A stretch of DNA of 20,062 bases from a virus (IMGVR_UViG_2778261543_000001); one strand, 5' to 3'; shown: positions 67 through 20,062, counted from the stretch's first letter. The notes: a model not told the origin generated them from the letters alone. Numbers and translations are program-made.

Positions 67-78
67 ACGGAGCCAACA

Positions 79-321: not shown

Positions 322-324
322 GAG

Positions 325-612: not shown

Positions 613-621
613 GAATCCTCT

Positions 622-801: not shown

Positions 802-824
802 AATAACGATTAAGTGAGATTAAT

Positions 825-1313
825 ATGGCAGCACCAAAGGGCAACCGATTTTGGGAGGCCCGCAGTAGTCATGGGCGAAATCCTAAATTCGAATCGCCTG
901 AGGCGCTGTGGGCTGCTTGTTGTGAATACTTCGAGTGGGTGGAAGCTAACCCGCTATGGGAGATGAAGGCGTTCTCGTATCAGGGTGAAGTGATACAAGA
1001 GCCTATCGCCAAGATGCGAGCGATGACCATTACCGGCCTCACTCTGTTCATTGATGTGACGCTTGAAACATGGCGCACGTATCGCCTGCGAGAAGATTTA
1101 TCTGAAGTCGTTACGCGAGCAGAGCAGGTCATCTACGACCAGAAATTCTCTGGCGCAGCCGCTGACCTTCTCAACGCTAATATCATCGCCCGTGATTTGG
1201 GCCTGAAAGAGCAGTCGCAAGTTGAAGACGTGACACCTGATAAGGGAGATCGCGATAAGCGGCGCTCTCGTATCAAGGAGCTATTCAACCGTGGAACTGG
1301 ACGCGATTCTTGA
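825..1313 (+). CDS. 3: Terminase small subunit, P22 gp3 type (162 aa)
   Basis: 162 aa, the same length as P22 gp3, and the sequence ([29 protein letters not shown]...) matches my recollection of P22 gp3 nearly residue for residue. Sits immediately upstream of and overlapping the large terminase gene. Confidence 0.9.
1092..1113. other. Candidate pac site (DNA packaging initiation sequence) inside the small terminase gene
   Basis: GAAGATTTATCTGAAGTCGTTA at 1092-1113, about 267 nt into gene 3. This matches the 22-bp P22 pac sequence as I recall it and its known location inside gene 3. The identification is from memory, not a computed alignment. Confidence 0.55.
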
Positions 1314-2790
1314 TAACCTGAGCGACGAAGAGCAAATCGAATTGCTCGAGCTACTCGAAGAAGAAGAGAACTACCGGAACACACACCTGCTATATGAATT
1401 TACGCCATACAGCAAACAGCGTGAGTTCATCGACGCCGGGCATGACTATCCAGAGCGCTGTTTTATGGCTGGTAACCAGCTTGGTAAGTCATTTACTGGT
1501 GCTGCTGAAGTCGCGTTTCACCTTACCGGGCGTTATCCGGGCACAAAAGGCTATCCTGCTGATGGTAAATATGGCGGTGAGTGGAAAGGTAAGCGTTTCT
1601 ATGAGCCTGTTGTCTTCTGGATTGGCGGCGAGACAAACGAGACTGTAACCAAAACGACTCAACGCATCCTGTGTGGTCGTATCGAAGAGAATGATGAGCC
1701 AGGCTACGGTTCCATACCTAAAGAAGACATCATTAGCTGGAAGAAGTCTCCTTTCTTTCCGAACCTTGTTGATCACCTTCTGGTTAAGCATCACACGGCT
1801 GATGGCGTTGAAGATGGCATTTCAATCTGCTACTTCAAGCCATACTCGCAAGGCCGCGCTCGCTGGCAGGGTGACACAATCCACGGCGTGTGGTTTGACG
1901 AAGAGCCACCATACAGCATTTATGGCGAAGGGCTTACCCGTACCAACAAATACGGGCAATTCTCAATTCTGACGTTTACCCCGCTGATGGGGATGTCTGA
2001 CGTTGTTACCAAGTTCCTGAAGAATCCCAGCAAGTCGCAGAAAGTGGTCAACATGACCATCTATGACGCTGAGCACTACACCGACGAGCAGAAAGAGCAA
2101 ATCATCGCATCCTATCCTGAGCATGAGAGAGAGGCGCGTGCTCGCGGTATTCCTACGATGGGTAGCGGGCGAATCTTCCAGATACCGGAAGAGACGATTA
2201 AGTGTCAGCCGTTCGAGTGTCCTGATCACTTCTACGTAATTGGCGGGATGGATTTTGGATGGGATCACCCGCAGGCGCAGGTTCAGCTTTGGTGGGATAA
2301 GGACGCAGACACAATCTACGTTTCACGCGTGTGGAAGGCGAAAGAAAAAACAGCCGTTCAGGCATGGGGAGCTGTTAAATCATGGGCGCATAAAGTGCCA
2401 ACAGCATGGCCTCATGACGGAAACCAGCACGAGAAGGGCGGCGGTGAGCAGCTCAAAGGGCAGTATGCAGATGCTGGTTTTATGATGTTGCAGGAGCATG
2501 CGACATGGCCTGATGGCGGTAATGCTGTTGAACCTGGCATCACTGAATTGCGCGACATGATGCTCAACGGTCGCTTCAAAGTATTCAACACCTGTGAGCC
2601 ATTCTTTGAGGAGTTTCGCCTCTATCACCGTGATGAAAACGGGAAGATCGTCAAGCTTAACGACGACGTGCTATCCGCCGTTCGCTATGCATACATGATG
2701 CGCCGCTTCGCAAAAATGATGCGCGACATCAAAAAACCAAAAGAGAAAAAGATACCAGCCCCAATCAGGCCCATCGCACGGAGAACTTAA
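1291..2790 (+). CDS. 2: Terminase large subunit (ATPase/nuclease), P22 gp2 type (499 aa)
   Basis: 499 aa as in P22 gp2, with a sequence that matches my recollection of it. Initiates at GTG (1291) with a strong AAGGAG site at 1275-1280. The start overlaps the 3' end of the small terminase gene by 23 nt in another frame. Confidence 0.9.
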
Positions 2791-4956
2791 ATGGCCGACG
2801 AAAACAGACTCAATTCCATTCTGTGTAAGTTTGACGCGGACTGGATGGCGAGCGATGAAGCCAGAACCGAGGCGACAAATGACCTGTATTTTAGCCGAGT
2901 GTCGCAATGGGATGACTGGCTATCAAACTACACTACCCTGCAATATCGCGGACAATTCGATGTTGTTCGCCCGGTGGTCAGGAAACTGGTCGCAGAGATG
3001 CGCCGTAACCCTATCGACGTTCTCTTCAGACCAAAAGACGGCGCTAATCCTGATGCAGCCGATGTGTTGATGGGGATGTATCGTACTGATATGCGCCATA
3101 ACACGGCAAAAATTGCCGTTAACGTTGGCGTTCGTGAGCAGATAGAGTCCGGCGTTGGTGCATGGCGTCTGGTCACGCAGTACGAAGACAACGATCCAAC
3201 AAGCAACAATCAGGTAATTCGACGCCTGCCAATTCATGAAGCCTGCTCACACGTCATATGGGACGCCAACAGCAAGCAGATGGATAAGAGCGACGCTAAG
3301 CACTGCACGGTGATTAACGCTTTGTCACGCAATGGCTGGAAAGAGTTCGCAGAGGATTACGGTATTGATCCGGATACCTTGCCATCTTTCCAGAATCCGA
3401 ACGATACATGGCTGTTTCCGTGGGTATCGAATGATGTCGTCTACGTCGCTGAGTATTACGAGGTCGAAGAGAAGAAAGAGAAAGTCTTCATCTACCGCGA
3501 TCCGCTGACAGGTGAGCCGGTCAGCTATTACCAGCAGGATATTAAAGACGTTATCGACGACCTGGCTAATCGTGGATTCATTAAGGTAGCAGAGCGCAAG
3601 GTGAAGCGTCGGCGTGTGTATAAGTCGATCATCACCTGCACGCAGATACTGAAAGACCGCGAGAAGATAGCCGGAGAGCATATTCCAATCGTTCCAGTGT
3701 ATGGAGAATGGTCATTCGCTGGTGACAAGGAGTGCTACGAGGGAGTGGTAAGGCTGACGAAAGACGGTCAACGCCTTCGTAACATGATCATGTCGTTCAA
3801 CGCCGATATTGTTGCTCGGTCACCGAAGAAGAAACCGACCTTCTTCCCTGAGCAAATCGAAGGCTACGAATACATGTACGGTGGAAATGATGACTATCCG
3901 TACTATCTGCAGAACAGGACCGATGAAAACGGTAACGACCTGCCGATTGGTCCAATCTCCTACATGGAAAACCCTGAAGTGCCGCAAGCCAACGCTTACA
4001 TGCTTGAGGCTGCCACCAACGCAGTGAAAGAGGTGGCTAGTCTTGGCGTGGATGCGCAGGCGGCAAATGGTCAGGTCGCTTTCGATACCGTCAATCAACT
4101 GAACATGCGGGCAGACCTTGAGACATACGTGTTTCAGGATAACCTGGCTACCGCAATGCGACGTGATGGCGAGATTTATGCCTCAATGGTCAACGATATT
4201 TATGACGTTCCTCGTCATGTGACGCTGACACTTGAAGATGGAAGCGAGAAAGACGTTCAACTCTATGCGCAAGTTGTCGATTATCAGTCCGGCAATGTGG
4301 TCACACTCAACGACATTCGCGGTCGCTATGAGTGCTATACGGACGTTGGGCCATCCTTCCAGAGCATGAAGGAACAGAACCGCGCAGAGATTCAGGAGTT
4401 ACTCACCAAGGTTCCGCAAGGTACTCCAGAGTTCCAGATGCTGATGCTGCAATACTTCACGCTGCTTGACGGTAAAGGCGTCGAGATGATGCGAGAGTAC
4501 GCGAACAAGCAACTGGTGATGATGGGACTGAAGAAACCAGAAACACCTGAAGAGATGGAGATGGTACAGCAGGCGCAACAGCAGCCGCAGCAGCCATCAG
4601 CAGAGCAAATTCAGGCGCAGGGTATCCTTCTGCAAGGTCAGGCTGAATTGCTCAAGGCAGAGAACCAACAGGCGCAGATTCAGGTTGAAGCTGCCAAGGT
4701 TGAAGCCCAAAACCAACTCAACGCCGCGAAGATTGCAGAAATCTTCAACAATATGGACCTCGACAAGCAGGCAGAACTGCGTGAGTACCTCAAGCTCGTA
4801 GGTCAATTCCAGCAACAGCGCAGCAAAGATGCTCGTGCTAACGCTGAGCTGCTTCTTAAAGATGCAGACCAGACTCATTCACAACGCATGGATTTCGCGA
4901 ATCTTATGCGTCAAGTTCAAATCCCCTCCGGCGGAGTAGCCGAGACACCTCAATAA
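2791..4956 (+). CDS. 1: Portal protein, P22 gp1 type (721 aa)
   Basis: 721 aa (P22 portal is about 725 aa), starting directly after the large terminase stop with a GGAGA site. The Gln/Ala-rich helical C-terminus ([18 protein letters not shown]...) is typical of the P22 portal barrel. Confidence 0.9.
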
Positions 4957-4969
4957 GAGAGAGTTAATC

Positions 4970-5881
4970 ATGGACCAAACCACCGACATTCAGGCTTCTG
5001 AAGAATTAACCATGCCCGGCAATCATGCAGCGGCATCTGCTGATGGCTTAGTTGTCGATAATGCCAACGACAACGCAGGTCAGGAAGAAGGCTTCGAGAT
5101 TGTCCTGAAAGACGATGAGAAACCAAAACAAGACCCGGCAACTAATGCTGAATTTGCCCGTCGCCGCATCGAACGCAAACGCCAGCGTGAGCTTGAGCAG
5201 CAGATGGAAGCGGTTAAGCGTGGAGAGTTGCCGGAGCACCTGCGGGTGAACCCTGAGTTACCAAAACAACCAGACCCTAACGATTATCTTTCCGAAGATG
5301 CACTGGCTAAGTACGACTATGACCAGAGCCGCGCACTGGCTGCCTTCCAGCAGGCAAACAGTGAATGGCAGATCAAGGCTATGGACGCAAGAAGCCAGGC
5401 TGTCGCCGAGCAGGGTCGCAAAACTCAGGAGTTCACCCAGCAATCAGCGCAATACGTCGAGGCAGCCCGTAAGCACTACGACGCAGCGGAAAAGCTCAAT
5501 ATCCCTGACTATCAGGAGAAAGAGGATGCATTCATGCAACTGGTGCCGCCAGCAGTCGGTGCCGACATCATGCGCCTCTTCCCGGAGAAATCCGCTGCTC
5601 TCATGTATCACCTTGGTGCTAATCCTGAGAAGACACGCCAGTTGCTGGCGATGGACGGGCAATCCGCGCTGATTGAACTCACTCGACTGTCAGAACGTTT
5701 AACTCTCAAGCCTCGAGCCAAGCCTGTTTCAGAAGCCCCGTTACCTGATGAACCCATTCAGGGACACGCTGTTGCTGCAAATATCTCTGCGATTGAAAAG
5801 CAGATGGAAGCGGCAGCAAACAAAGGGGATGTAGAGACGTACCGCAAGCTCAAGGCGCAACTGAATAAAGGAATTCGATAA
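4970..5881 (+). CDS. 8: Scaffolding protein, P22 gp8 type (303 aa)
   Basis: 303 aa, the same as P22 gp8; highly charged, helix-prone composition; lies between portal and coat. Its stop overlaps the coat start (TAATG). Confidence 0.85.
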
Positions 5882-7176
5882 TGGCATTAAATGAAGGTCA
5901 ACTGGTCACGTATGCTCTGGATGAAATCATCGAAACCGTCCAGAACCTGACGCCAATGGCGTCCAAAGTGACAAAATACACCCCTCCGGCAGAATCCATG
6001 CAACGTTCAAGCAACACCGTGTGGATGCCTGTTGAGCAGGAAGCGCCAACCCAGACTGGCTGGGATTTAACTGGCAACGCAACCGGGATTCTGGAACTCT
6101 CCGTGAAATGCAACATGGGCGATCCGGATAACGATTTCTTCGAGCTTCGTGCAGATGACCTGCGTGATGAGCGTTCTTACCGTCGCCGCATCCAGGCATC
6201 CGCCAAAAAACTGGCGAATAACATTGAGTCAGCGATTGCCAAACAGGCAACTGAAATGGGCTCGCTTGTTGTTCACGATACCCGAGCAATTGGTCCATCT
6301 ACTGGCCTGTCTGGCTGGGATTTTGTGTCTGATGCAGAGCGCCTGATGTTCTCCCGTGAGCTAAACCGCGATATGGGCATCAGTTACTTCCTGAACCCTG
6401 ACGATTACCGCAAAGCAGGCCGCAACCTGGTAGATGGTGACATCTTCGGGCGCGTTCCTGAAGAAGCGTATCGCAACGGTACTATTCAGCGTCAGATTGC
6501 TGGCTTTGATGAAATTCTTCGCTCACCGAAACTTCCGGCAGTTACCAAGTCAACCGCTACTGGTGTAACTGTTTCTGGTGCGCAGAAGTTTAAGCCGCAG
6601 GCATACACCCTTGATACCGATGGTAACAAAGAGAACGTCGACAACCGTGTTGCAACGGTGACCGTATCCTCCACCACCGGATTTAAGCGCGGCGACAAAA
6701 TCAGCTTCACTGGTGTGAAGTTCCTGTCTCAGATGGCGAAGAATGTGCTGACTGATGACGCGACTTTCTCAATCACCCGTGTGATCGATAGTACTCACAT
6801 CGAAATCACGCCGAAGCCGATTGCGCTGGATGACGCGTCACTGACAAAAGAAGAGAAGGCTTACGCGAATGTAAACACCTCTCTTGCTGATACCACACCG
6901 GTAAACGTTCTGAACGTGGCAACAACCACCGCTAACGTGTTCTGGGCTGATGACTCAATCCGCCTGCTGTCTCAGCCGATCCCGGTAACCCATGAACTGT
7001 TTGCTGGCATGAAAACGTCTTCCTTCAGCATTCCTGGTATTGGTGTTAACGGCATCTTCGCAACGCAGGGTGATATCAACACTCTGTCTGGTAAGTGCCG
7101 TATTGCTGTGTGGTATTCAGCATGTGCTGTACGACCAGAGGCAATTGGTGTTGGTCTGCCTAACCAGACCGCGTGA
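5881..7176 (+). CDS. 5: Major capsid (coat) protein, P22 gp5 family (431 aa), diverged from P22 itself
   Basis: 431 aa against 430 for P22 coat. N-terminus MALNEGQ..., the RADDLRDE motif and the C-terminal [13 protein letters not shown] agree with recalled P22 coat, but many internal substitutions are visible, so this is a different allele from the P22-identical terminase. Confidence 0.9.
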
Positions 7177-7184
7177 TAACCAGA

Positions 7185-7208
7185 GGGAGCTTCGGCTCCC
7201 TTTTCTAT
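7185..7208 (+). terminator. Rho-independent terminator or attenuator downstream of the coat gene
   Basis: GGGAGC-TTCG-GCTCCC hairpin (7185-7200) followed by TTTTCT, 9 nt after the coat stop codon. Confidence 0.6.
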
Positions 7209-7219
7209 TGGAGATACCA

Positions 7220-7825
7220 ATGAGCGTAATGATTTTTCAGGCTGGCGGAGATACCAAAATATGGGGACGCAAGCTGAAAACGAAAACCGTTGATCCTGAT
7301 GATGTAGCTGTGCACTTAGCAAATGGCTGGTATAAGCACCCTGACGATGTTCCTGATGATCCTCTTGTTGGTGATCAAATTGGGAGTGTTGGCGGAGGTG
7401 AAACTTCCCCAGTTGATATGGGCGAAGTGTCCGACGGTTATCACACTTTTAACGAGCTTTACGCTCACCGAGTGCGCCTCTTCTCATCGCTGATGCATGC
7501 TTACGCTGAGCTTTCGTGGTGGTCTCGCAAACACAGTGACGGTGAAGAGTGGGATGGCTGGATCATTGCTGGTATCACCACTCCAGAAGGCGAAATCACT
7601 TATCACCTACCTGTTGAAGAAATCGAGTTCCTTCCTGAAGGTACTGAGCTTGAGTTCGGGAAAGAGTGGGATGGTCATGAAGCAAATGATGTTCTTGGAC
7701 GACTCCTGAGTTTGCGTCCGGCTATTGCAGAGCCAGAGCCAGAGCCAGAGCCAGAAGAAAAACAGCGTAAAAAGCCTAGTCGAAAACCTAAGGCGGCAGC
7801 AGATGAACCTGACAACGAAGGGTGA
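7220..7825 (+). CDS. Acidic hypothetical protein (201 aa) with an (EP)4 repeat and a Lys/Arg-rich tail, inserted between coat and gp4
   Basis: ATG at 7220 with a GGAGA site 5 nt upstream. The ORF track begins this frame at 7040 inside the coat gene, but 7220 is the first start after the coat terminator. Protein is Asp/Glu-rich and ends ...[22 protein letters not shown].... Its 3' end overlaps the gp4 start by 23 nt. P22 has no gene here as far as I recall. Confidence 0.6.
7729..7752. repeat. Perfect tandem hexanucleotide repeat (AGAGCC)x4
   Basis: Read directly at 7729-7752. Encodes EPEPEPEP in the 7220 frame. The WLWLWLWL and GSGSGSGS stretches in antisense and alternate-frame ORFs are artefacts of this repeat. 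Confidence 0.95.
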
Positions 7826-8303
7826 TTTAGTCCTTGCGGCATTACGTAAGCTCGGTGTTGCATCAAATGCCACGTTAACCGATGTCGAACCGCAGTCTAT
7901 GGAAGACGGCGTCAACGACCTCGAAATGATGATGGCTGAATGGCTTGGCGGTGATGTGTCACCTGGTATCAACGTTGGCTACATTTTTGCTGATGCAGAT
8001 GTCGCTCCGGATCCGGGCGATGAGCACGGTTTATCAAATAACGCTATCAATGCCGTCATTTTCAACCTTGCCTGCCGCATTGCTCCAGATTATGCGCTGG
8101 AAGCGTCTGCAAAACTTATAACCACTGCCAGATACGGTAAAGAGCGACTCGTCAAACTGTCTGCAATGGATAGGGCAAAAGCCGCTAAATGTAAGTCCGG
8201 TTATCCAAACCGTATGCCTGTTGGTAGCGGTAACCAGTTGGCGAAGTGGAACGGTTGGAATTACTTCCACCGGAAGGAACCTTGCGATAACGGGAGCGAA
8301 TAA
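7803..8303 (+). CDS. 4: Head-completion / tail-adaptor protein, P22 gp4 type (166 aa)
   Basis: Starting at the ATG at 7803 gives 166 aa, the P22 gp4 length, and the sequence ([27 protein letters not shown]...[14 protein letters not shown]) matches recalled gp4. The ORF-track start at 7725 is an upstream extension running through the repeat. Confidence 0.85.
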
Positions 8304-9722
8304 ATGCCGATTCAGCAACTTCCGCTTATGAAAGGTGTCGGCAAAGACTTTCGAAACGCCGACTATATCGACTATCTGCCAGTGAATATGTTGGCTACAC
8401 CCAAAGAAATCCTTAACAGCAGCGGATATCTTCGCTCATTCCCGGGCATTGCCAAACGTTCCGACGTGAACGGTGTATCGCGCGGCGTCGAGTACAACAT
8501 GGCGCAGAATGCTGTTTATCGCGTGTGTGGCGGCAAGCTCTACAAAGGCGAAAGCGAAGTCGGTGACGTCGCCGGAAGTGGTCGTGTATCAATGGCGCAT
8601 GGTCGGACATCACAGGCAGTAGGCGTTAATGGTCAACTGGTCGAGTATCGCTATGATGGCACGGTTAAAACCGTCTCAAACTGGCCTACAGACAGCGGAT
8701 TCACGCAGTATGAGTTAGGTTCAGTCCGCGACATTACGCGCTTACGTGGGCGTTATGCGTGGTCAAAAGACGGCACTGATTCATGGTTTATCACTGACCT
8801 TGAAGACGAATCGCATCCTGACCGCTACAGCGCACAATATCGTGCTGAGTCTCAGCCTGACGGCATCATCGGCATCGGAACATGGCGAGACTTCATCGTC
8901 TGCTTTGGTTCATCGACGATTGAATATTTCTCCCTGACTGGCGCAACAACTGTTGGTGCTGCTTTGTATGTCGCACAGCCATCACTGATGGTGCAGAAAG
9001 GCATTGCCGGAACTTACTGCAAAACGCCATTCGCTGATTCGTATGCGTTTATCAGCAATCCGGCAACGGGTGCGCCGTCTGTATACATCATCGGATCCGG
9101 TCAGGTGTCACCAATCGCCAGCGCGAGCATTGAGAAAATTCTCCGCTCCTACACTGCTGATGAACTGGCTGATGGTGTGATGGAGTCTCTGCGATTTGAT
9201 GCGCATGAGCTGCTGATTATCCATCTTCCGCGCCATGTTCTGGTGTACGACGCATCTTCAAGCGCCAATGGTCCGCAATGGTGTGTACTGAAAACAGGCC
9301 TGTATGACGATGTGTATCGCGCTATCGACTTCATTTACGAAGGCAATCAGATAACGTGCGGCGATAAGCTGGAATCCGTGACCGGGAAATTGCAATTCGA
9401 TATCAGCAGCCAGTACGACAAGCAACAGGAACATCTGCTGTTTACTCCACTCTTCAAAGCAGATAACGCCAGAGTTTTCGACCTTGAGGTTGAATCGTCA
9501 ACTGGCGTTGCGCAGTACGCTGACCGCCTGTTCCTCTCTGCAACCACTGACGGCATCAATTACGGGCGTGAGCAGATGATTGAGCAGAATGAACCGTTCG
9601 TTTACGACAAACGCGTTTTGTGGAAGAAAGTAGGGCGCATCAGGAAAAACATTGGCTTCAAATTGCGCGTTATCACTAAGTCACCTGTCACTCTGTCTGG
9701 CTGCCAGATAAGGATTGAGTAA
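8304..9722 (+). CDS. 10: Tail hub / head-completion protein, P22 gp10 type (472 aa)
   Basis: 472 aa, the same as P22 gp10; it follows gp4 directly (TAA then ATG) with a GGGAG site. Assigned by size and conserved order. Confidence 0.85.
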
Positions 9723-10570
9723 TGGCTGATTCGAATCTTAATGTGCCGGTAATCATTCAGGCTACACGACTCGACACATCAGTCCTTCCGCGTAATATCT
9801 TCTCGCAGTCGTATCTGCTTTACGTTATCGCACAGGGAACTGATGTTGGTAACGTGGCTAACAAAGCCAACGAGGCCGGACAGGGCGCTTATGATGCACA
9901 GGTCAGGAACGATGAGCAGGATGTGATTCTGGTCGATCACGAAATTCGACTGGCATCGGCTGAAGCGAAGATACAGGACCACGAAACAAGGATCACTAAC
10001 GCAGAAGCGGCGATAGTCGGCCTTGATTCACGATTAACGACAGCAGAAAACGATATTGATTATCTGACTGATGAAGTTATCGCCATTCAAAACACGCTTT
10101 CAGACCATGAAACGCGCATCGATGCTCTGGAGTATGCCACTACTCGCAAGAAGTCAGAGGTTGTTTACTCTGGCGTATCTGTAACCATCCCGACAGCGCC
10201 GACCAACCTTGTTAGCCTGCTGAAAACGCTCACGCCGTCATCTGGCTCGTTGGCACCATTCTTCGACACTGTTAACAACAAGATGGTTGTGTTCAACGAG
10301 AACAAAACCTTGTTCTTCAAGCTGTCGATCGTCGGGACGTGGCCCAGCGGAACCGCCAACAGGTCAATGCAGCTAACCTTTTCCGGCTCTGTTCCTGACA
10401 CGTTGGTCAGCAGTCGTAATGCAGCGACAACAACCGATAACATCCTGTTAGCTACGTTCTTCAGCGTGGATAAAGACGGCTTTCTTGCCACAAATGGCAG
10501 CACGTTAACCATTCAGTCGAATGGTGCGGCGTTTACTGCCACAACCATCAAGATAATCGCGGAGCAGTAA
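9722..10570 (+). CDS. 26: Tail needle (cell-puncturing plug), P22 gp26 family, 282 aa with a C-terminal extension
   Basis: N-terminus [43 protein letters not shown]... matches the recalled gp10-binding N-terminal domain of P22 gp26. The centre carries repeated DHE(I/T)R heptad-type coiled-coil motifs. At 282 aa it is longer than P22's 233 aa, and the extra C-terminal part is Ser/Thr/Asn-rich, as in the knobbed needles of Sf6/HK620-type phages. Confidence 0.9.
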
Positions 10571-11025
10571 TGATTCAGTTCAAACCAACGCGAAACATCG
10601 ACCTGATAGAAGCAGTCGGAAATCACCCTGACATCATCGCCGGGAGCAACAACGGTGATGGATACGACTACAAACCTGATTGCCGTTACTTTGAGGTGAA
10701 CGTGCACGGTCAGTTTGGCGGCATTGTTTACTATCAGGAGATTCAGCCGCTGACATTCGATTGCCACGCCATGTACCTGCCAGAGATTCGCGGATTCAGC
10801 AAGGAAATCGGGCTGGCGTTCTGGCGATACATTCTGACTAACACCACCGTTCAGTGCGTCACATCGTTCGCCGCACGCAAATTCCGCCACGGGCAGATTT
10901 ACTGCGCAATGATTGGCCTTAAGCGTGTCGGAACCATCAAGAAATACTTCAAAGGCGTGGATGACGTGACTTTTTACAGCGCCACACGCGAAGAACTAAT
11001 CGACTTCCTGAATCACGGGAGATAG
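10570..11025 (+). CDS. Protein in the P22 gene-14 position (151 aa); probable assembly or ejection-associated protein
   Basis: Start overlaps the gp26 stop (TAATG) with a GGAG site. It occupies the slot between tail needle and gp7 that gene 14 fills in P22. I do not recognise the sequence, so the call is positional only. Confidence 0.45.
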   Translation: MIQFKPTRNIDLIEAVGNHPDIIAGSNNGDGYDYKPDCRYFEVNVHGQFGGIVYYQEIQPLTFDCHAMYLPEIRGFSKEIGLAFWRYILTNTTVQCVTSFAARKFRHGQIYCAMIGLKRVGTIKKYFKGVDDVTFYSATREELIDFLNHGR

Positions 11026-11027
11026 CC

Positions 11028-11720
11028 ATGTTATATGCATTTAAGCTGGGCAGAAAACTGCGCGGCGAGGAACCTTATTGCCCTGAAAAAGGCGGGAAAG
11101 GTGGCAGCTCTGATAAAAGCGCAAAGTATGCAGCAGAAGCTCAGAAGTATGCCGCAGACCTGCAAAATCAGCAGTGGCAGACGATCATGAAAAACCTTGC
11201 TCCGTTCACGCCGCTTGCGGAGCAGTATGTTAACCAGCTTCAGAATCTTTCCAGTTTAGAAGGTCAGGGGCAGGCACTTAATCAGTATTACAATTCTCAG
11301 CAGTATAAAGACCTTGCAGGTCAGGCGCGTTACCAGAGTCTTGCTGCTGCGGAGGCGACGGGTGGACTTGGTTCGACAGCCACAAGCAATCAACTGGCTA
11401 CGATCGCGCCGACACTCGGTCAGTCTTGGTTATCAAACCAGATGAGCAATTACAACAATCTGGCAAACGTTGGGCTTGGTGCGCTGCAAGGTCAGGCAAA
11501 CGCCGGGCAGACGTACGCCAACAACATGAGCAGCATTGCACAGCAAAGCGCAGCTCTTGCCGCTGCTAATGCCAACAAACCATCAAGTCTTCAGACAGCA
11601 ATTAGTGGCGGAACGTCTGGTGCGATTGCCGGTGCAGGTCTTGCCAGCCTTTTGGGGACATCAACACCTTGGGGCGCTGGCATTGGTGCTGGTATCGGAT
11701 TGCTTGGCTCGTTGTTTTAA
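11028..11720 (+). CDS. 7: Ejection (internal virion) protein, P22 gp7 type (230 aa)
   Basis: 230 aa (P22 gp7 about 229 aa) at the expected position. Gln/Ala/Asn-rich with a Gly-rich hydrophobic C-terminus (GAIAGAGLASLLG...GIGAGIGLLGSLF), consistent with a membrane-inserting ejection protein. Confidence 0.7.
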   Translation: MLYAFKLGRKLRGEEPYCPEKGGKGGSSDKSAKYAAEAQKYAADLQNQQWQTIMKNLAPFTPLAEQYVNQLQNLSSLEGQGQALNQYYNSQQYKDLAGQARYQSLAAAEATGGLGSTATSNQLATIAPTLGQSWLSNQMSNYNNLANVGLGALQGQANAGQTYANNMSSIAQQSAALAAANANKPSSLQTAISGGTSGAIAGAGLASLLGTSTPWGAGIGAGIGLLGSLF

Positions 11721-11729
11721 GGGGTAATC

Positions 11730-13136
11730 ATGGCTACTTGGCAAGGATCAAATGGCGGATTGTTAGCTGGTATCGGCGGCGTCAACTCAAACGCTCCGAG
11801 CGTAAATGACATCGGCAATACGCTTCAGCTTATCAGGCAGAACAATGATATTGAGCGTTCAGGCGCTAACAATGTTGGGCTGACTGCTTTGCAAGGTCTT
11901 TCAGGTATTGCAGGGGTGTTTCAGCAGGAAAAGCAGGCTCAGCGGCAGAAAGAATTTCAGCAGGCGTACGCTAATGCTTATGCGTCTGGTGATCGCGGTG
12001 CTTTGCGTCAGTTGGCTACTCAATATCCAGACCAGATTGAATCCGTTCGTAAAGGCATGGGATTCATTGATGAAGACCAGCGCAATTCTATCGGCACCTT
12101 AGCGGCTGGCGCACGCCTTGCGGCCTCGTCTCCAGAAGCAATGCAATCATGGCTGCAAAACAACGCCAATGAGCTGGCGCGCGTCGGTGTTGACCCTAAT
12201 AACGTTGCTCAGATGTATCAGCAGAATCCTTCAGGATTTGGTGAGTTTGTTGATCACCTTGGGATGGCTGCTCTTGGTCCGATTGATTACTTCAATGTTC
12301 AGGACAAGATGGCAGGTCGTGAGATTGACCGAGGCAGGCTGGCAGAGACAATCCGCAGCAATCAGGCTGGTGAAGCACTTCAGGCGAGAGGGCAAAACCT
12401 TTCCTATCAGTCAGCAATGACTGGGCACAATATCGCAGCACAACGCTTGGCTCTGGATCAGCAAGAGTTCGGGTTTAAGATGCAGCAAGCGCAGGAAAAG
12501 GCTCAGCAGTTGATTAGCGAAGCACCTAAGCTGTCAGTAAACATGGAAAAAGGCATCGAGACGGCTGTAAACAATGCCACAGCATCATCAAACTCAGCCA
12601 ATTCCATGAGTGCGCTTGCTCAACAGTTCAGAGCAGAAAAACCAACGACCGGTTTGTTCGGTAACGCACAGAACATGTTCGCAAAACTTACCGGAAGCGA
12701 TACGACATTGCGTGATTTGCGCATTCGCCAAAATGCCCTTGTTAACAGTCAGGTTCTTAAATTCCTACCTCCCGGCCCAGCAACGGATAAAGACGTTGAG
12801 ATTGTTCGACAGGGTGCGCCAACTGACATGGATAACCCTGAGACGGTCGCAAGATGGCTTGATGCAATGGCAAACCTTGAGCGACGAAACGCGCAGTTTA
12901 ATGAGTTTAAAGCTGAGTGGATGAGCGCGAATGGCAACCCTGGACAATCGCGTAATGGCGGTCAGATATTGGGGTTGGATGTTAAAAAAGGTGAATCATT
13001 GGGGAGTGCCGTTAAGCGGTATATGTCAATGAATACTGACGCAGCGCCAGCACAAGATTCGACACCTTCAGGAGAACCACGGAATCAGGTTGGATCATAT
13101 ACCTCAAAATCAGGCATTCAATTTACGGTGGAATGA
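11730..13136 (+). CDS. 20: Ejection protein, P22 gp20 type (468 aa)
   Basis: 468 aa (P22 gp20 about 471 aa), in the conserved 7-20-16 order, with an AAGGGG site. Its stop overlaps the gp16 start. Confidence 0.7.
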
Positions 13137-14977
13137 TGAAAGTAACTGCAAACGGTAAGACATTTACCTTTCCTGATGGTACGAGCACCGAAGATATTGG
13201 CACCGCCATTGATGAGTATTTTGCTGGTCAGGCTGTTCAGCAACAAACAGTTAATCAGGCCAATAATGCACCAACACGGGAAGAACCATCATTGATGCAA
13301 CAAGCTGGCGATTGGCTCACTGGTGGTCAAAGTGCAGGGCAAATTGCGGAACAGGCTGGTCGTGGTCTGGTAAACATACCATTTGACGTATTGCAGGGCG
13401 GCGCAAGTCTGATTAATGCAATCAGTCAGGGGCTTGGTGGACCCAAGGTTTTGGATGATGTTTATCGTCCAGTAGACAGACCGACAGACCCCTACGCTCA
13501 AGCTGGAGAAACAATTGGCGGGTATTTAGTTCCAGGAGTTGGAACGGCAGGAAGCATGGCTATTGGATCACTGGCAGAGGCCGCAAATCAGAAAGGTGAT
13601 TTCGCACAAAATGCAGCTAAAAATGCCGGAGTTAACCTTGCCGCTCAGGGTGTTCTTTCCGCAGCAGCAAAGGGAATAGGGCGTGGAATAACGGCTATAA
13701 AAGGTGATATTGCGCCAGAAGTGGCAAAGAAAATTGCCACATCAGAATCGATGGGCGTGACACCAATGACATCTGATGTTATCCCGCCGAAAAATGCTTT
13801 CACTCGCGGACTTACTCAGGATGCTGAGGGGGCTTTGCTCGGGACAGGCTCAAAGCGAGCGGAGCAATATGCAACGCGTAGTAAGCTGGTAAGCAATTAT
13901 TTTGACCGTTTTGGTGAGTACAACCCTGATGATGTGGTGAAATCTCTGACCACCACGTTAAGGGGACGGAAGGATGCCGCTGGCGCTGTTATCAATGACG
14001 TCACCAATAAAATGGGTAATGCCGCAGTTGATACCACAAATACCATGAATGCTCTGAATACAGCGATCGCAAGACAGGAACGGCTTGGGACGTCTGCCAA
14101 TCAAAGCCTGCTTACATCCTTGCGTAACCTACGTGAAGAATTAGCAAACCCTGCAACTGATTTGGATGTTACGTTTGATCTCTTGCGTCAGCACAGAACA
14201 GCATTTAGATCTAATGTTCAGGGAGATGCTATGGTCTTCCCCAACCAGGCAAAAGCAGCTACCAATATGGTAGAGAATGCAATGTCAAAAGACCTTCGTA
14301 ACGCAGTTGCAAAAAACCTCGGTGCATCAGACGCAGCAAAATACCTTAAAGCAAATTCCGATTATGCAAACGTTTATAATAAGGTTCTTAATAAAAACAT
14401 TGCTAACAAGCTCAACAAGGCAAGCAGTGAAGCCAGTCCTGAACTTATAAATACCGTTGTATTAAGCAGAAAACCATCTGACGTGAAACGAATCTGGAGC
14501 GCACTGGATGATAAAGGGAAAGATGCTATGCGTGCAGCTTACGTCAGCAAAATAGCGGAAAAGGCCGGTGACTCTCCAGCCAAGTTCATCACTGAAGTTA
14601 ATAAGCTGAAATCTCAGTCAGGTGGTGAAATTTACAACACTATTTTTTCTGGAAAGCACATGAAAGAGCTTGATGCTCTTCATGAAGTTCTACAGCAAAC
14701 AGCAAGGTCAGACACCGCAAATGTAGTAACTCAGACGGGGCAATCGCAAGCCAACAGGATAAGGACGATTGGCGCAACTGCGACTCTTGGCGTATCAATG
14801 GGGCTTGAGGCTGGTTTCGGTGCAATGATGCGCTTGTATGAATCCAAAGCAGCAAGGAATGCGCTCTTACGTCTGGCAAACACCAAAGCTGGAACGCCAG
14901 CTTATGAAAGAGCGCTAAATAATGCTGCAAATGCGATACGTCCTATACTTTCAAGCCAAATTACAGCAGAACAATAG
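13133..14977 (+). CDS. 16: Ejection protein, P22 gp16 type (614 aa)
   Basis: 614 aa (P22 gp16 about 609 aa). It is the last gene of the 7-20-16 block and starts in the ATGATG at 13133-13138, which contains the gp20 stop (TGA, 13134-13136). Confidence 0.7.
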
Positions 14978-15026
14978 ATAAATAATTAACTAAGCACATA
15001 ACTACTGACAGATAACCAACGCAACG

Positions 15027-15050
15027 ACCCAGCTTCGGCTGGTTTTTTTA
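15027..15050 (+). terminator. Rho-independent terminator between gp16 and the tailspike gene
   Basis: CCAGC-TTCG-GCTGG hairpin (15029-15042) followed by a run of seven T, about 50 nt after the gp16 stop. Confidence 0.6.
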
Positions 15051-15107
15051 TGCCCAAAATTCACCGTAGCCACGCTGCGGCGTTTCCTTGTATCTGGAGC
15101 AAATTAA

Positions 15108-17057
15108 ATGACAGACATTACAGCCAATGTTGTAATTGGGATGCCTTCGCAACTCTTCACTATGGCTCGTTCTTTTAAAGCCGTAGCCAATGGCAAAATT
15201 TATATCGGTAAAATTGACACTGACCCGGTAAATCCTGAAAACCAGATTCCGGTTTATATAGAGAACGAAGACGGTTCTCACGTTCCTGTTTCGCAACCAA
15301 TTATCATTAACGCTGCTGGTTATCCTGTATATAACGGGCAGATTGCCAAGTTCGTAACTGTGCAAGGCCATTCTATGGCTGTTTATGATGCATACGGTGC
15401 TCAGCAGTTTTATTTTCCGAATGTTCTGAAGTACGATCCTGACAGATTGCGACAGGATTTAGCGCTTCCAACAGGCGCTGAGCTTGTAGGCGTGCAACCA
15501 CAAGGAAATCTTTCGCAAGTCATTCAGTTTGTATCTCCAGAGCAGTTTGGCGCCATCGGAGATGGTACGGTTCATCCATTATCTGAGCGTTATGCGACTC
15601 TTGCAGCAGCGCAGGCTGTATACCCATTCGTAACATCTCTGACCCAGACAATTGACTGGGCAGCGTGTCAGGCGGCTGAGAACTATGCGCGTGGTAAAAC
15701 AGCGGTAAGATGCCCTTTCTACGCCAAGTATCATCTTGGCAACAATTATCTTGAGCTAAGCGAGAAAAGTAAATGGTATGGCAATGACAATCCCACTATA
15801 GATCGCCCATGCACCACTATCATACGAGAGGGAAATGCTGGCAGCTTCGGAAGAAATGCAATCGTCCGCGTTATGAGCTCTAGCGAAGCAGGAAGTTCGG
15901 ATGAATTTGTTCGCGGAGTCGTTTTCAAAGGTTTCTATTTATCTAGAAACCGCCCTCGTCGATTTAACAGCAAGTATGAAGGGTCAATAGGCTTTCATGT
16001 TAACTTTGCAATTAGAGCAGATATCGACGTGGCAATAAGCGGCTGTGAATATGGCCTTTTTGGCTATGGGTGCTGGGGACTGGTTGGTAGGGTTCGCGTG
16101 GATTCATGCCATAAATCTATTTGGCTGGATCCTGACACCGCAACTCCAGAGCATACCAACCCAGGCGGTTCAATAACGGCTCTTGATTTACGCGTAGAGG
16201 TGGATGCATGCGTCTACGGACCAGTGCTTCGACATGTGCAATATAGTAGAATTTCTGGATGGGTCGAAGGAATGCTTATTGATTCCGCAGTATACCCAAT
16301 CTATGACTACACCAACGAAACAGCTATAGCTATTACGGCATATGGATGCGATGGTTTAGATATAGAAAATCTAGGAATTGAAGCCTGGCAGGGAGTGATG
16401 GTTTACGCCAATTCCAGTACAGTATCCACTGGGATAAAATGGAATCAAGGAGCATTACTAACAAATACAACCGGTAAACACGGGCCATACCAGGCCATGG
16501 CAGCACTTACTGGCGCAACAGAATTGTTCACTTTACCATCGACTAACAACTCATATTTCTATGCAAAAAGTGGAGGCCTACTTAAGTTAAGAAATATGAC
16601 AGGAGATATGTCGACCGCTTCTTTCGCAAATACATTCCTTGTTACGGTTGATGCTGACTCTCGATTCTTAATGGAGAATACTGGCATTTACTTTGGAAGT
16701 AGTCGACTAATTGCCCCCGGCAATTGGGAGAATATTGAATTTATCAACGATAGATTCATGCAGAACTATATGGTGCCAGCTGGGTACTCATATGAAGGAC
16801 GCGGTATTTGTACTGCTAGCGCATGGTCAAACAAGACGATAAATGCCGGCGATGGTAGGGTTACACTTGATGCCCCTACTGGGTGGAAAATTATTGATTT
16901 TGTGGCCTACGTAATAACAAGCACCATATCACAAACTAGAAGCTACTCTCCTGTAGGAGTTGTATCCACATCAGATACGCGGATTATTCTGCAGACTGGT
17001 GTGGACACTACAGGTTTTTCTGTAACCTACAAACTAAGACTAAAGGTAATAAAGTAG
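15108..17057 (+). CDS. 9: Tailspike protein (649 aa): P22 gp9-like N-terminal head-binding domain fused to an unrecognised receptor-binding domain
   Basis: The first ~110 aa ([11 protein letters not shown]...[36 protein letters not shown]...[12 protein letters not shown]) match the recalled P22 gp9 head-binding domain. The rest has no resemblance to the P22 endorhamnosidase domain, though its Gly/Asn/Ser/Thr-rich repetitive composition would suit a beta-helix fold. TGGAG site upstream. Confidence 0.9.
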
Positions 17058-17061
17058 AGTG

Positions 17062-17086
17062 AAAGCCCCTTACGGGGCTTTTTTAT
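17062..17086. terminator. Terminator hairpin between the convergent tailspike and gtrC-like genes
   Basis: AAAGCCCC-TTAC-GGGGCTTT hairpin (17062-17081) with a T-run to 17086, 5 nt after the tailspike stop and overlapping the stop of the - strand gene. The T-tract follows only on the + strand, so termination of the minus-strand gtr transcript is less certain. Confidence 0.6.
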
Positions 17087-18603
17087 ATGCCTGTTTTTAT
17101 TCTGTGGTTGTAAACCATTATTATCATGCCATTGTAACTTAGAACTTCATCAGGACTGCCAATAGTAGCCTCGACTCCTTTCCTACATAAATCTATGTCT
17201 GCGCACTGATCTCCAGTATTGCCCTTCCTTAAAGCTATGAACTGTCGTTCAGGTTTTGATTCTACAAATTCATTTGTGTGCCAAAACTTCATTGTTTGAA
17301 CGCGGGCATCCTTGAAGTTGATAACCCCTGTTTTTTTATGAAAGTAAACAGGGGTTATATGTATGTCTCCGCCAGACAGCCAATTCACGCCCATAGACAT
17401 CCCCCAAAAACTACCATATCCGTAAGTAAGATCATGATGCTTAAGGAAGTCTATATATGAATTGACAGGGTTATCGTTAAGCTTGTAGCGAATATTCATT
17501 AATGAGTAGCCATAAATGCACGTAGCAAAACTTAACAGCAAAGGAATTACTAATAATATAGCTCGTTTAGAAGATGCTGCTACTGACAATAGCACGATCA
17601 CCATTGGGGCAATATTAAGATAAAATCTTTGATGGGGAGTTTGATCACCTATTATTGAAGATGAGTATATTCCTGCTATAGACATGATTGAAAATATTGC
17701 AATGTAGCGAGCCGCACCGCCTCGCTTTATGCATATGAACACGGCATATAAGCATGTAATAGACCATGTAAAAAATATTGCATACCTGAAATACTCGTTG
17801 CCTATATTCGTTATTGGCAACATCTTGGCTGTGATATCAACAGCAAGCCTGGCATTATCAAGCATAACATCAAAAGGTGCCAAGTGGAAAGAGTGAACAG
17901 GAAGACCTATAATCTTTTGAATTACATTTGAGAAAGCCAATGCAAAAAACACAAAGTATATAATGAAATTTCTTTTTGTGGTTTTCTCAAAAACGATGAT
18001 AGCACACTCAGTAATTATCATTGGTAGGAAAAAAGCCGCCAGAAGCCATGGATCAGACGCGCTCGCTAGCAGCGAAATCAAAGAGCATACAAACGGTATA
18101 AATATGTTTTTGCTTTTTAAGCTTAACACAAACAAAGAAAAAACTACGAACCCATACGCATTAGTAGAGTTATGCGAAAATGGGTGTGAGAAATAACCGT
18201 GTCTGTATAGGTCTGGAGAAACAAATGTTATGCATATTAAAGCAATTAAAGCTAGATAGTTACCTGAACATGACCTAACCATTTCTGTTACGCATGCTGT
18301 GATAACAAAAATAAATATTGCGCTTGATATCACTAATGGCAACAGACCATCATCACCGAGCAGTAAAAACAAAGCAAAGTTTACTGGATAAACTGTAAAA
18401 TACCAGTTATCAAATGTTGGTTGCCATTGAGTAAAAGAACTCCATCCACTGTCCAGGAATGCCCTCCAAACTATTGGGCTATTGGCGGCATCTGCATCCC
18501 CTGACCATAAGTAGCTGTGTCGCGATGTAAGATAAAGAGACACGCAAAAAGATGCGAGATATAAAAAACACCAAAAAGCTCTGCTATCAGATATCCTATT
18601 CAT
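17083..18603 (-). CDS. GtrC-like serotype-specific O-antigen glucosyltransferase (polytopic inner-membrane protein, 506 aa); specificity unknown
   Basis: Third gene of a gtrA-gtrB-gtrX arrangement, with its start overlapping the gtrB stop (ATGA). The protein is very hydrophobic with many predicted membrane spans and a ~130-aa hydrophilic C-terminal domain. AT-rich codon usage. I do not recognise it as a specific named Gtr type. Confidence 0.7.
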
Positions 18604-19523
18604 GATTTACTAACACCCTTTAATATATAACGAGGCCTATTTTTGGACTCAACATATATCCTGCCAATGTACTCACCAAGAACGCCAATGCCAATCAATT
18701 GAACCCCGCCAAGGAACAGAATAGAGACAAGCAGGGATGGATATCCACGCACAGCATTGCCGAAGGCCAGTGTGTCGATAATCATCCAAGCACCGTACAG
18801 AAACGCCACTCCAGCTACGAACAGGCCAATGTAAGTCCACATGCGCAACGGGAAAGTAGAGAAGCTTGTGATCCCCTCAAGTGCCAGGTTCCACAGTTTC
18901 CATCCATTAAATTTAGTACTGCCTGCCACTCGTTCTGCGCGTGCATACTCGACAACATCTGTGCGACCGCCAACCCAACTCAGCACACCTTTCATAAAAA
19001 GGTTGCGCTCTGGCATAAGCTTAATGTTTTCGACAACTTCACGGCTCATTAACCGGAAATCGCCAACGTTTTCTTCTATCTTTGGGTTGCTGATTTTGTT
19101 ATGAAGCTTATAGAACCACTCAGCAGATTTACGTTTTAGTCGGCTGTCAGTTGAGCGATCAGAGCGCTTAGCAAGAACCATATCCGCGCCGGCCTGCCAC
19201 TTCTCAATAAGATGAGGGATGACTTCAATCGGGTCCTGCAGGTCAACGTCAATTGGAATTACAGCCTCTCCGGTTGCATGTTCTAACCCTGCAAACAATG
19301 CTGGTTCTTTACCAAAGTTGCGTGTAAATGACAGTGGAACAACCAGCGGGTCTGAAACAGCCAGAGCATTAATAATTGACTCCGTAGCGTCTTTACTTCC
19401 GTCATTTATGAATACAATTTCCACTTCATATGGCTTCAACTCTTCGAATTCACGTACCGTTTTATAGAAAATTGGTATCGCTTCTTCTTCATTGAGGACA
19501 GGAACAACCAGAGATATCTTCAT
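18600..19523 (-). CDS. gtrB: Bactoprenol glucosyltransferase GtrB (GT2 family, 307 aa)
   Basis: N-terminal GT2 fold signature ([14 protein letters not shown]...INDGSKD...) with a DxD-type motif (PIDVDLQDP) and two C-terminal hydrophobic helices, as in GtrB. Flanked by gtrA and the gtrC-like gene with ATGA overlaps. Confidence 0.9.
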
Positions 19524-19882
19524 TTCGCATTCCTAAAGACAATGAGCTTTGAATAGACGAAACCGCACACCAGGCTGATGGCGGAGAAAGTGATAAGGGT
19601 GACCATTGGAGGAAGTGCACATCTATCAGCAGCCCATCCAATAGTTGCACTCAGTGTTCCCATGAACCCGACATATAACATGTAGCGCATCGTTGTAGTT
19701 GATGCTTTGAATGTGAATTTTGCATTCGCGAAGAAGCTAAAACTCACAGCCACAACAAAACCTGCGAAGTTTGCCAGAGCCTGATTGGTATGCGCGGCAT
19801 AGATACATACACCAAAAACCACCCAGTGTATAAGTGTGTTCAGCACGCCAATCGAGGTGTACTTTGCAAATAGCTTTAACAT
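19520..19882 (-). CDS. gtrA: GtrA, small membrane protein (flippase for undecaprenyl-phosphate glucose), 120 aa
   Basis: 120 aa with four hydrophobic segments, first gene of the operon, typical GtrA size and position. Confidence 0.85.
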
Positions 19883-19920
19883 TTCTTCTATCAGCTAATA
19901 ATCAAAGGCATGAAGTCTAT

Positions 19921-20062
19921 TGGATTTGCCCCTATATTTCCAGACACCTGTTATCACTTAACCCATTACTGGCTTGCTGCCGTAGATATTCCCGTGGCGA
20001 GCGATAACCCAGTGCACTATGCGGATGCCATTCGTTATAATGCTCGAACGCCTCTGCAAGGT
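19921..20062 (-). mobile_element. IS2 insertion sequence, right terminal inverted repeat plus 3' end of the transposase gene; truncated by the window edge
   Basis: 19921-19961 (TGGATTTGCCCCTATATTTCCAGACACCTGTTATCACTTAA) matches the IS2 right inverted repeat as I recall it, with one mismatch. The adjoining minus-strand reading frame ends in a typical IS2 transposase C-terminus. Confidence 0.8.
19932..20062 (-). CDS. insD: IS2 transposase (orfB/InsD) C-terminal fragment; 5' part lies outside the window
   Basis: Minus-strand translation from the window edge reads ...[42 protein letters not shown], with the stop at 19932-19934. This is the conserved IS3-family integrase-fold C-terminus and matches the recalled IS2 InsD tail. 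Confidence 0.75.

Follow-up and report, generated by a model that had tools for sequence, protein, structure and literature searches.

Did the AT-rich right end of a P22-like prophage arrive as one recent import from a genome of lower guanine-plus-cytosine (GC) content, or does its composition have another history? We addressed this question in a 20,062-nucleotide stretch of viral DNA (IMGVR_UViG_2778261543_000001, equal to the full contig NLNW01000079.1 of assembly GCA_002229875.1; hereafter the window), which by gene content and homology is the late region of an Escherichia coli P22-like (Lederbergvirus-type) prophage ending in a tailspike gene and a convergent gtrA-gtrB-gtrC operon. A first-pass annotation, made by eye, had described an AT-rich block at 15450-19900 that spans the tailspike receptor domain and the gtr operon, and had taken it as consistent with recent horizontal acquisition from a lower-GC source. 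Its gene identities held, in that a Head_binding domain, a GT2-type GtrB, a PF04138 GtrA, and a GtrI homolog were all recovered. Its account of the block's origin held only in part: the genes are horizontally mobile, but the AT-richness is likely to be a graded, lineage-wide feature of this arm of the P22-like genome, made up of several independently exchanged pieces rather than a single recent import.

GC content was 0.507 across 826-14000 and 0.427 across 15450-19900 (z = 9.2), and the stretch at 17100-18600 stood at 0.380, confirming that the right end is AT-rich. However, the shift did not begin in mid-tailspike as had been proposed. The strongest change-point of the window fell at 13989-14125, inside the ejection protein gene gp16 (13133-14977, plus strand; PF26808; GC 0.465), with twice the log-likelihood ratio at 90, whereas none of 100 shuffles gave a value above 18, and it was the sole change-point to survive strict penalties. 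High-threshold binary segmentation returned only this split near 13989 and missed gtrC; optimal partition, which is more permissive, was used instead, and it gave 826-14000 (0.507), 14001-17000 (0.446), 17001-18675 (0.378), and 18676 to the end (0.458). No GC step was found at 15450, with 14001-15449 at 0.435 and 15450-17057 at 0.452 (z = -1.0), and no significant change-point was found within the tailspike open reading frame (ORF; 15108-17057, plus strand, 649 aa), where the best split lay at 16240 (permutation p = 0.41) and the head-binding domain (GC 0.421) was no less AT-rich than the remaining tailspike (0.452; z = -1.1). The steps into and out of gtrC (17083-18603, minus strand; GC 0.378) were significant (z = 4.2 and -4.0), with a gtrC/gtrB change-point at about 18660 (p < 0.005); gtrC is the only markedly AT-rich gene, and gtrB and gtrA (0.45) are mildly so. 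In place of a genomic island whose shift matches the borders at 15450 and 19900 and which is uniform within, we thus observed a step near 14000 followed by three tiers.

GC at third codon positions (GC3) was 0.526 in the head genes, 0.458 in gp20 (11730-13136, plus strand), 0.371 in gp16, 0.381 in the tailspike N-domain, 0.382 in its receptor part, 0.349 in gtrC, 0.435 in gtrB (18600-19523, minus strand; GC 0.453), and 0.488 in gtrA (19520-19882, minus strand; GC 0.449). The z-scores relative to the head genes reached -6 to -7, while gtrA did not differ from them (z = -0.8). The ejection genes, which had been grouped with the head genes as roughly balanced, are therefore not all so, since at third positions the drop has already begun at gp16. 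The dinucleotide signature departed as well: delta* between 15450-19900 and the head region was 97, against a null of 27 +/- 6. Taken separately, gp16, the tailspike, and gtrC all departed from the head region (0 of 300 subsamples reached the observed value), but the signature of gtrB plus gtrA was not unusual (p = 0.32). The sliding GC and codon-usage check suggested in the first-pass annotation thus returned a significant shift, with its breakpoint near 14000 rather than at the tailspike domain boundary.

The same hierarchy was found across related phages. In P22, the head genes lie at GC 0.50-0.53, the N- and C-terminal parts of the tailspike at 0.421 and 0.439, gtrC at 0.319, gtrB at 0.418, and gtrA at 0.455. 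GC also fell from backbone through tailspike to the gene occupying the gtrC position (the slot gene), with gtrB and gtrA in between, in Escherichia phage APC_JM3.2 and in the loci L004, L005, L006, L010, L045, L046, and L049, whichever family of slot gene they carried and whatever the GC of their host. In each locus, the slot gene was the GC minimum, and this applied to all of the families (GtrI, PF14264, WsfD-like, a 606-aa type, and YfhO-like). In a genome scan for the GtrI family, which was used for the GC test and covered distant loci only (31-46% identity, none from Hafnia or Proteus), the GtrI-family gene fell below its distal flanks in 25/25 species-level loci (mean -0.111; range, -0.245 to -0.025), and across these 25 loci there was no correlation with flank or host GC (r = 0.15). 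Because P22-like phages and gtr slot genes show this dip as a rule, composition cannot date the acquisition. The recency that had been read from it is not supported, as P22 shows the same profile with unrelated alleles. In a literature search, we found no open-access paper stating that gtr(type) genes are low in GC; Allison and Verma (2000) reportedly remarked on it.

A low GC so widely kept could reflect active selection on the slot gene, by H-NS-type silencing, phase-variable low expression, or a need for slow membrane-protein translation, instead of inheritance from a donor or neutral AT-biased drift. Low GC is universal over slot-gene families and hosts and uncorrelated with host GC, and gtrC remains at 0.33-0.39 across hosts of 0.31-0.52 GC while gtrB tracks its host (0.366-0.490); Dam/OxyR and H-NS themes have also been published for prophage genes (PMC7380047). 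However, that gtrC copies share a more recent ancestor (cross-genus synonymous divergence [dS] of 0.6-0.9) accounts equally well for their narrow range, and the branches of the close gtrC clade drift toward the composition of their hosts rather than holding a tight optimum. GC in this clade was 0.345 in Proteus, 0.369 in Hafnia, 0.370-0.378 in E. coli, and 0.394 in L016, and the polarised singletons (AT>GC/GC>AT) numbered 33/58, 20/25, 32/21, and 21/10, respectively, so that the Proteus copy loses GC, those of L016 and, weakly, E. coli gain it, and that of Hafnia is balanced. We regard selection as an unlikely explanation on this evidence.

The polarised substitutions also bear on the lower-GC source that had been proposed. 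They place the ancestor of the gtrC clade at about 37% GC already and do not allow a donor to be named. Proteus was considered as a low-GC donor and rejected as one that could be demonstrated: its branch is losing GC, and pairwise identities within the clade are star-like (0.81-0.86). The best cross-genus DNA identity was 78-86%, and thus no near-identical donor copy was found.

Homology divides the right end into more than one piece. In the phage database, every match to the head and tail genes (95-96%; APC_JM3.2, IME10, and Dewey) ended at 15449-15461, which corresponds to tailspike aa 114-118 of 649, in the inter-domain linker that follows the head-binding domain. The boundary at which the first-pass annotation had looked for a breakpoint is therefore a real homology and domain joint, but not a GC boundary. 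Further joints lie inside the receptor part, at about aa 331 and about aa 450. Upstream, the gp20 C terminus and gp16 (12270-15063) form a separate exchange module, 99% identical to L006 and 69% to P22, whose homology to APC_JM3.2 and L005 is patchy, matching only at about 13233-13641. Downstream, 16100-18051 differed from L006 by about 6 mismatches in about 1,950 bp (about 99.7% identical) and was near-identical to L005 also; this piece spans the 3' ends of both convergent genes (tailspike aa ~331-649 and GtrC aa ~185-506). The adjoining 18052-18708, comprising the gtrC 5' end and the gtrB 3' end, was about 10% divergent from L005 and L006 and is flanked by near-identical stretches. Beyond it, 18709-19052 was identical to L006, and 19053-19300, within gtrB, was about 16% divergent. 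For the receptor part and gtrC, no near-identical DNA was detected in 5,426 complete E. coli genomes or 50,697 phage records.

Synonymous divergence, calculated by the Nei-Gojobori method, separated the same pieces. Between the window and L005/L006, dS was 0-0.044 for tailspike aa 331-649 and GtrC aa 211-506, but about 0.29-0.32 for the head-binding domain, GtrC aa 1-210 (0.287), and gtrB; for tailspike aa 119-330, the first part of the beta-helix, dS against L006 was 2.1. Across genera, gtrC dS was 0.6-0.9 (versus Hafnia, Proteus, and L016), whereas its neighbors were at or near saturation: gtrB, gtrA, and all tailspike parts were saturated versus Proteus and L016, and versus Hafnia, gtrA and most of the tailspike were saturated, with gtrB at 2.0 and the tailspike C terminus at 1.7. 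As a protein, GtrB is nonetheless better conserved than GtrC despite its higher cross-genus dS. Amino acid identities were discordant as well, with 87% for gtrC and 56% for the tailspike helix versus Hafnia, and 57% and 73% versus Obesumbacterium. The contrast between gtrC and its saturated neighbors indicates that gtrC moved between genera independently. By these estimates, it spread long after the genera diverged, but not recently.

In E. coli L005, 15063-19920 was present as a single colinear 96.3% match on a different P22-like backbone, whose needle has 233 aa and gp16 767 aa and which includes an mnt/arc gene. E. coli L006, an argW-linked remnant, matched window positions 11206-19920 at 95.4% over 8.7 kb, in the order gp20, gp16, tailspike, gtrCBA, int, tRNA-Arg(CCU) argW, yfdC, and mlaA (L006 14776-16311 after the cassette); in L004, too, an integrase is followed by tRNA-Arg(CCU) argW. 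The tailspike-gtrCBA cassette is thus attached to two different integration modules in L005 and L006. Directly after gtrA, L005 carries a tRNA-3'-like att fragment (14776-15142; ...GGTTCGACTCCTATTATCGGCACCA) with no integrase between; ARAGORN found no complete tRNA at the L005 end.

Outside E. coli, the pairings change. In Hafnia alvei, a gtrABC operon (GtrC 87% identical at the aa level) converges with the gene of a 668-aa spike, which has a PF18668 anchor and sits on a tail of the tape-measure/NlpC type, and in Proteus (hosts of L012-14, assigned by exact FliA and CbpA proteins), a GtrC with 80% aa identity stands beside three different spikes and backbones. Obesumbacterium (L010) combines a receptor domain at 70-73% with a GtrC at 57% and an extra YfhO-like gene. 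This gene, in Obesumbacterium proteus CP014608 (L010 11544-13184), encodes a YfhO-family membrane protein of 546 aa (GC 0.311) between gtrC and gtrB, which gives the operon two candidate type-specific transferases. Phages of other types carry the receptor domain too, joined to PF18668-type anchors or in spikes of 757 aa, and at 60-69% identity it adjoins PF14264-type, WsfD-like, or 606-aa slot genes. This spike was near none of the 25 distant GtrI-family loci, and therefore the pairing of tailspike and gtrC appears confined to a phage-borne subclade. Together, these comparisons support horizontal exchange of the genes in the block well.

What unit is exchanged? One tentative possibility, which we consider doubtful, is that the selected unit is the pair of convergent 3' halves, i.e., the C-terminal regions of the tailspike and of GtrC with their shared terminator. 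It is suggested because 16100-18051 is about 99.7% identical in E. coli prophages whose sequences to the left and right of it have diverged to a dS of at least about 0.3, because the continuous Hafnia homology tract begins at the same tailspike C-terminal border (16455), and because members of the gtrC clade have passed between phages of Proteus, Hafnia, and Escherichia independently of gtrA and gtrB. The phages sharing this clade have at least three tail architectures. If true, a co-adapted cassette that recognizes and masks the same O-antigen would be moving across genera as one recombination unit.

The view that 15450-19900 is one AT-rich island, in which the receptor domain and the whole gtr operon were acquired together, recently, and from a lower-GC donor, appears quite improbable. 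It accommodates the GC contrast with the head genes (0.427 versus 0.507), the end of phage homology at 15449-15461, the colinear L005 match on a different backbone, and the 80% aa-identical gtrC allele in Proteus, a genus of about 39% GC. Mobility itself is borne out, since homology ends at the tailspike linker, the cassette recurs on L005 and L006, and gtrC recurs in Hafnia and Proteus; a single, recent event is not. There is no GC step at 15450 or inside the tailspike, and the deficit, which begins in gp16, falls into three tiers of composition, the steps on either side of gtrC being significant. The modules also differ in age, with dS of about 0 across 16100-18051 and about 0.29 in the gtrC 5' part and gtrB, and across genera gtrC is far less diverged at synonymous sites than its neighbors. 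Divergences of beta-helix, tailspike C terminus, gtrC, gtrB, and gtrA are thus discordant, and in other loci this receptor-domain family is found next to modification genes of three further families, both of which argue against an origin as one block. Finally, P22 has this profile with unrelated alleles, and the Proteus copy is itself losing GC.

To separate protein composition from codon choice, the GC deficit of each gene was split by back-translating its protein with head-gene codon usage. The amino-acid and synonymous parts were +0.019 and -0.064 in gp16, -0.029 and -0.057 in the tailspike N-domain, +0.005 and -0.063 in the tailspike receptor part, -0.043 and -0.088 in gtrC, -0.016 and -0.040 in gtrB, and -0.029 and -0.031 in gtrA. 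Membrane-protein composition therefore accounts for just one third of the gtrC deficit. We give almost no credence to the idea that AT-richness merely follows from what the proteins are made of (membrane proteins rich in Phe, Ile, Leu, Tyr, Asn, and Lys; beta-helix repeats) and carries no evolutionary signal: GtrC is indeed polytopic, with many hydrophobic segments, 44.7% FILMVWY, and 41.7% F, I, L, Y, N, or K, and the amino-acid effect is perceptible in gtrC, gtrA, and the tailspike N-domain, but synonymous sites bear most of the deficit in gtrC, the receptor part, and gp16, and the decomposition together with GC3 rules out composition as the sole cause. The synonymous deficit of the tailspike is common to gp16. 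That the long-resident head-binding domain and gp16 are equally depleted at these sites is a further argument against reading recency from composition.

We therefore return to a graded, lineage-wide deficit assembled piecewise. By homology, GtrB would load glucose onto undecaprenyl phosphate, GtrA would flip the lipid-linked glucose to the periplasm, and the GtrI-family GtrC would glucosylate the O-antigen at a type-specific position, which would alter the receptor bound and cleaved by the beta-helix tailspike, both of this phage and of others; the gtr operon and the P22 mechanism are taken from established knowledge (PMC2629481, PMC7380047). The host-interaction genes (gp16 and both tailspike parts) share a uniform synonymous deficit of about -0.06 against the head genes, the slot gene gtrC adds to its -0.088 at synonymous sites a further -0.043 from hydrophobic amino acid composition, and the housekeeping-like gtrB and gtrA depart by just -0.03 to -0.04. 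The arm was probably put together through repeated recombination, both homologous and illegitimate, where domains or genes meet, namely, at the linker after the head-binding domain, at sites inside the beta-helix and at its end, at the junction of gtrC with gtrB, and in patches of gtrB. The gtrC clade was already at about 37% GC when it spread among Escherichia, Hafnia, and Proteus phages, and its long-term low GC could be attributed to AT-biased mutation with weak codon selection in accessory genes of low expression that are often transferred.

Several observations weigh against this interpretation. The E. coli gtrC branch shows a slight, nonsignificant excess of AT>GC changes (32 versus 21), and the 80%-identical Proteus allele sits in a host of about 39% GC; together, these make an ultimate origin of gtrC in a low-GC lineage possible. 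Tested by itself, gp16 shows no significant change-point (p = 0.27); the one given above is defined only against the long head region. The dS estimates are rough in genes as strongly AT biased as these, and the related loci looked at in detail number about 20. The cause of the low GC is also one that we infer, with mutation bias plus weak selection, donor composition, and selection (H-NS-dependent control) as possible candidates.

The tailspike carries the Head_binding domain PF09008 at residues 1-113 (E = 4.7e-66), within a head-binding (adaptor) region of aa 1-118 (15108-15461), and its N terminus matches the N-domains of Sf6 gp14 and P22 gp9 in PDB. For the receptor-binding part (15462-17057), the PDB comparison gave no close solved homolog. 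In an AlphaFold2 model (predicted local distance difference test [pLDDT] score of 88), a head-binding domain at about aa 23-106 is followed by a low-confidence linker (108-138), a parallel beta-helix body up to about aa 445, and a C-terminal beta region at about aa 480-649. Foldseek matched the model to the Sf6, P22, phi297, LKA1, and HK620 tailspikes with a probability of 1.0. The protein thus has both the N-terminal PF09008 domain and the parallel beta-helix receptor-binding/depolymerase body of a P22-type tailspike, and its putative role, from homology, is to bind and cleave the O-antigen receptor. For the receptor part, E. coli homologs showed 98% and 90% identity, and an Obesumbacterium homolog showed 70%. 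An antisense ORF of 107 aa (15048-15371, minus strand) overlaps the tailspike start, and a stop-free antisense frame is also present in L004, L005, and L006 (107-108 aa) and in P22 and APC_JM3.2 (84-86 aa). We rejected it as a gene: no homologs were found among similarly sized neighboring ORFs, and it is probably a spurious frame opposite conserved head-binding codons.

The gtr genes are arranged in tandem, with 4-bp overlaps at gtrC/gtrB (18600-18603) and gtrB/gtrA (19520-19523), consistent with translational coupling, and the variable polytopic third gene, gtrC, lies directly downstream of GtrA (PF04138, E = 1.9e-13) and the GT2-type GtrB (PF00535, E = 1.4e-30). By homology, gtrB encodes a bactoprenol-phosphate glucosyltransferase, and gtrA encodes a small membrane protein, the putative flippase of lipid-linked glucose. 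Both were 83-95% identical at the DNA level to annotated copies in Shigella and E. coli phages and had thousands of matches at 85-95%, and gtrB was 88-95% identical to those of many E. coli and Shigella prophages; they are the usual E. coli/Shigella alleles. The 506-aa product of the gtrC slot had no Pfam or NCBIfam match but was homologous over its full length to SfI GtrI (39.8% identity, 95% coverage, E = 5e-96, tblastn versus phages), and its Obesumbacterium homolog is named "GtrI family protein" in UniRef. It is presumed to be a serotype-specific O-antigen glucosyltransferase, although at about 40% identity the acceptor and linkage specificity of GtrI would not be transferable to it. This transferase and the tailspike receptor domain probably both act on the same E. 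coli O-antigen.

Between the convergent stop codons of the tailspike and gtrC lies a 25-bp spacer (17058-17082; GC 0.52). It contains a perfect, GC-rich hairpin at 17062-17081, AAAGCCCC-TTAC-GGGGCTTT, with an A-run ahead and a T-run behind, as read by eye; a simple consensus terminator scan did not report it. The hairpin is probably a bidirectional terminator.

At its other end, the operon abuts an insertion sequence (IS). An IS end starts at 19921, 38 bp upstream of the gtrA ATG, and its terminal 142 bp (19921-20062) are present, the contig end falling inside the element. This sequence had matches in 4,399 of 5,426 E. coli genomes (median, 3 copies; up to 42; 93-96% identity), and the matched elements are annotated as carrying an IS3 family transposase, which places it in the IS3 family; we take it to be IS2-like. 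L004, L005, and L006 all carry a conserved sequence upstream of gtrA (CATCCAAGTCTCAATCGATCGATGA...) where the window has the IS, and their GATC-containing stretch is displaced in the window. The native gtr promoter/regulatory region is therefore displaced, and expression of the conversion operon may be lost or may be driven by the IS.

The remainder of the window comprises a collinear P22-like virion module, with P22-family Pfam domains from terS to gp16. On the plus strand, terS (825-1313) is followed by terL, portal, and scaffold, the coat gene (5881-7176), and then gp4, gp10, needle, gp14, and gp7 ahead of gp20. At the DNA level, these genes shared 93-98% identity with the Escherichia phages APC_JM3.2, IME10, and Dewey, and identity with P22 was about 81%. 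Between coat and gp4, a 201-aa WDGH-domain ORF of normal GC (7220-7825; PF25311, E = 1.4e-39) looks like a variable insertion among the head genes. Neither APC_JM3.2 nor L005 is homologous across 7215-7727, and both have just a short ORF there (76 aa in L005). The tail needle (9722-10570, 282 aa) has an Sf6-type knob (PF16532, E = 2e-108). The needles of APC_JM3.2 and L005 are of the P22 type, with 233 aa, and their homology to it ends at about 9943, another mosaic joint within a gene. The left end of the window (1-825) is also lower in GC (0.433). Upstream of terS, it holds a DUF2560 ORF (79-321) and then a 95-aa ORF with no Pfam match (325-612), and the APC_JM3.2 match there is limited to 56-316.

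These results counsel caution in reading composition, since the dip over tailspike and gtr is the norm of the P22-like family and cannot, alone, date or source an acquisition. They also matter for attempts to predict, from sequence, serotype conversion and the host range of phages, in that related alleles were traced to Hafnia, Obesumbacterium, and Proteus prophages, recombination joints were mapped, and the IS may have silenced or rewired the operon; current understanding is unchanged. The near-identical piece of about 1.9 kb and the cross-genus mobility of gtrC are only a mildly novel lead.

Among known systems, P22 (AF217253) is the closest in layout. Like the window, it has gp20, gp16, and a tailspike followed by gtrC, gtrB, and gtrA on the opposite strand, with the same head-binding domain and GC hierarchy and about 76% DNA identity in gtrB/gtrA. 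Unlike the window, whose tailspike directly follows gp16, P22 has the immI region (sieA, mnt, arc, and ant) between gp16 and gene 9, and it lacks the Sf6-type needle knob. Our searches returned no P22 match to the receptor part or to GtrC, the sequences of which are unrelated. The gtrA-gtrB-gtrI operon of phage SfI is closer in its gtr genes, with about 84% DNA identity in gtrB/gtrA and a GtrI homologous to the window GtrC. One SfI report describes the same three-gene operon logic (PMC3259042), but SfI is not a P22-like podovirus (PMC3636060), and the upstream region of the window operon, unlike that of SfI, is interrupted by the IS element. In Salmonella, gtr examples undergo phase variation by Dam/OxyR (PMC7380047). 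Among argW-linked E. coli prophages with the order intS-yfdG(gtrA)-yfdH(gtrB)-gtrC, L006 shares gp20-gp16-tailspike-gtrCBA with the window. L004 (the GPEC1405 locus) is 93.7% identical in gtrB/gtrA but has a WsfD-like slot gene and a different tailspike C terminus. The L004/L006 type is presumably equivalent to CPS-53/KpLE1 of K-12.

Both tailspike modularity and gtrC variability have been published (PMC2629481, PMC10408124), including exchange of the tailspike, as the receptor-binding protein, across phage genera (PMC10408124) and an analysis of epsilon34 (PMC2629481). As in those systems, the window tailspike combines a conserved N-terminal anchor (aa 1-115) with interchangeable receptor domains; it does not depart from them in anything fundamental but has, in addition, the joints within the receptor part at about aa 331 and about aa 450. 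What is new here is an uncharacterized combination of alleles, a GtrI-family GtrC with a new tailspike receptor domain, in a well-known cassette.

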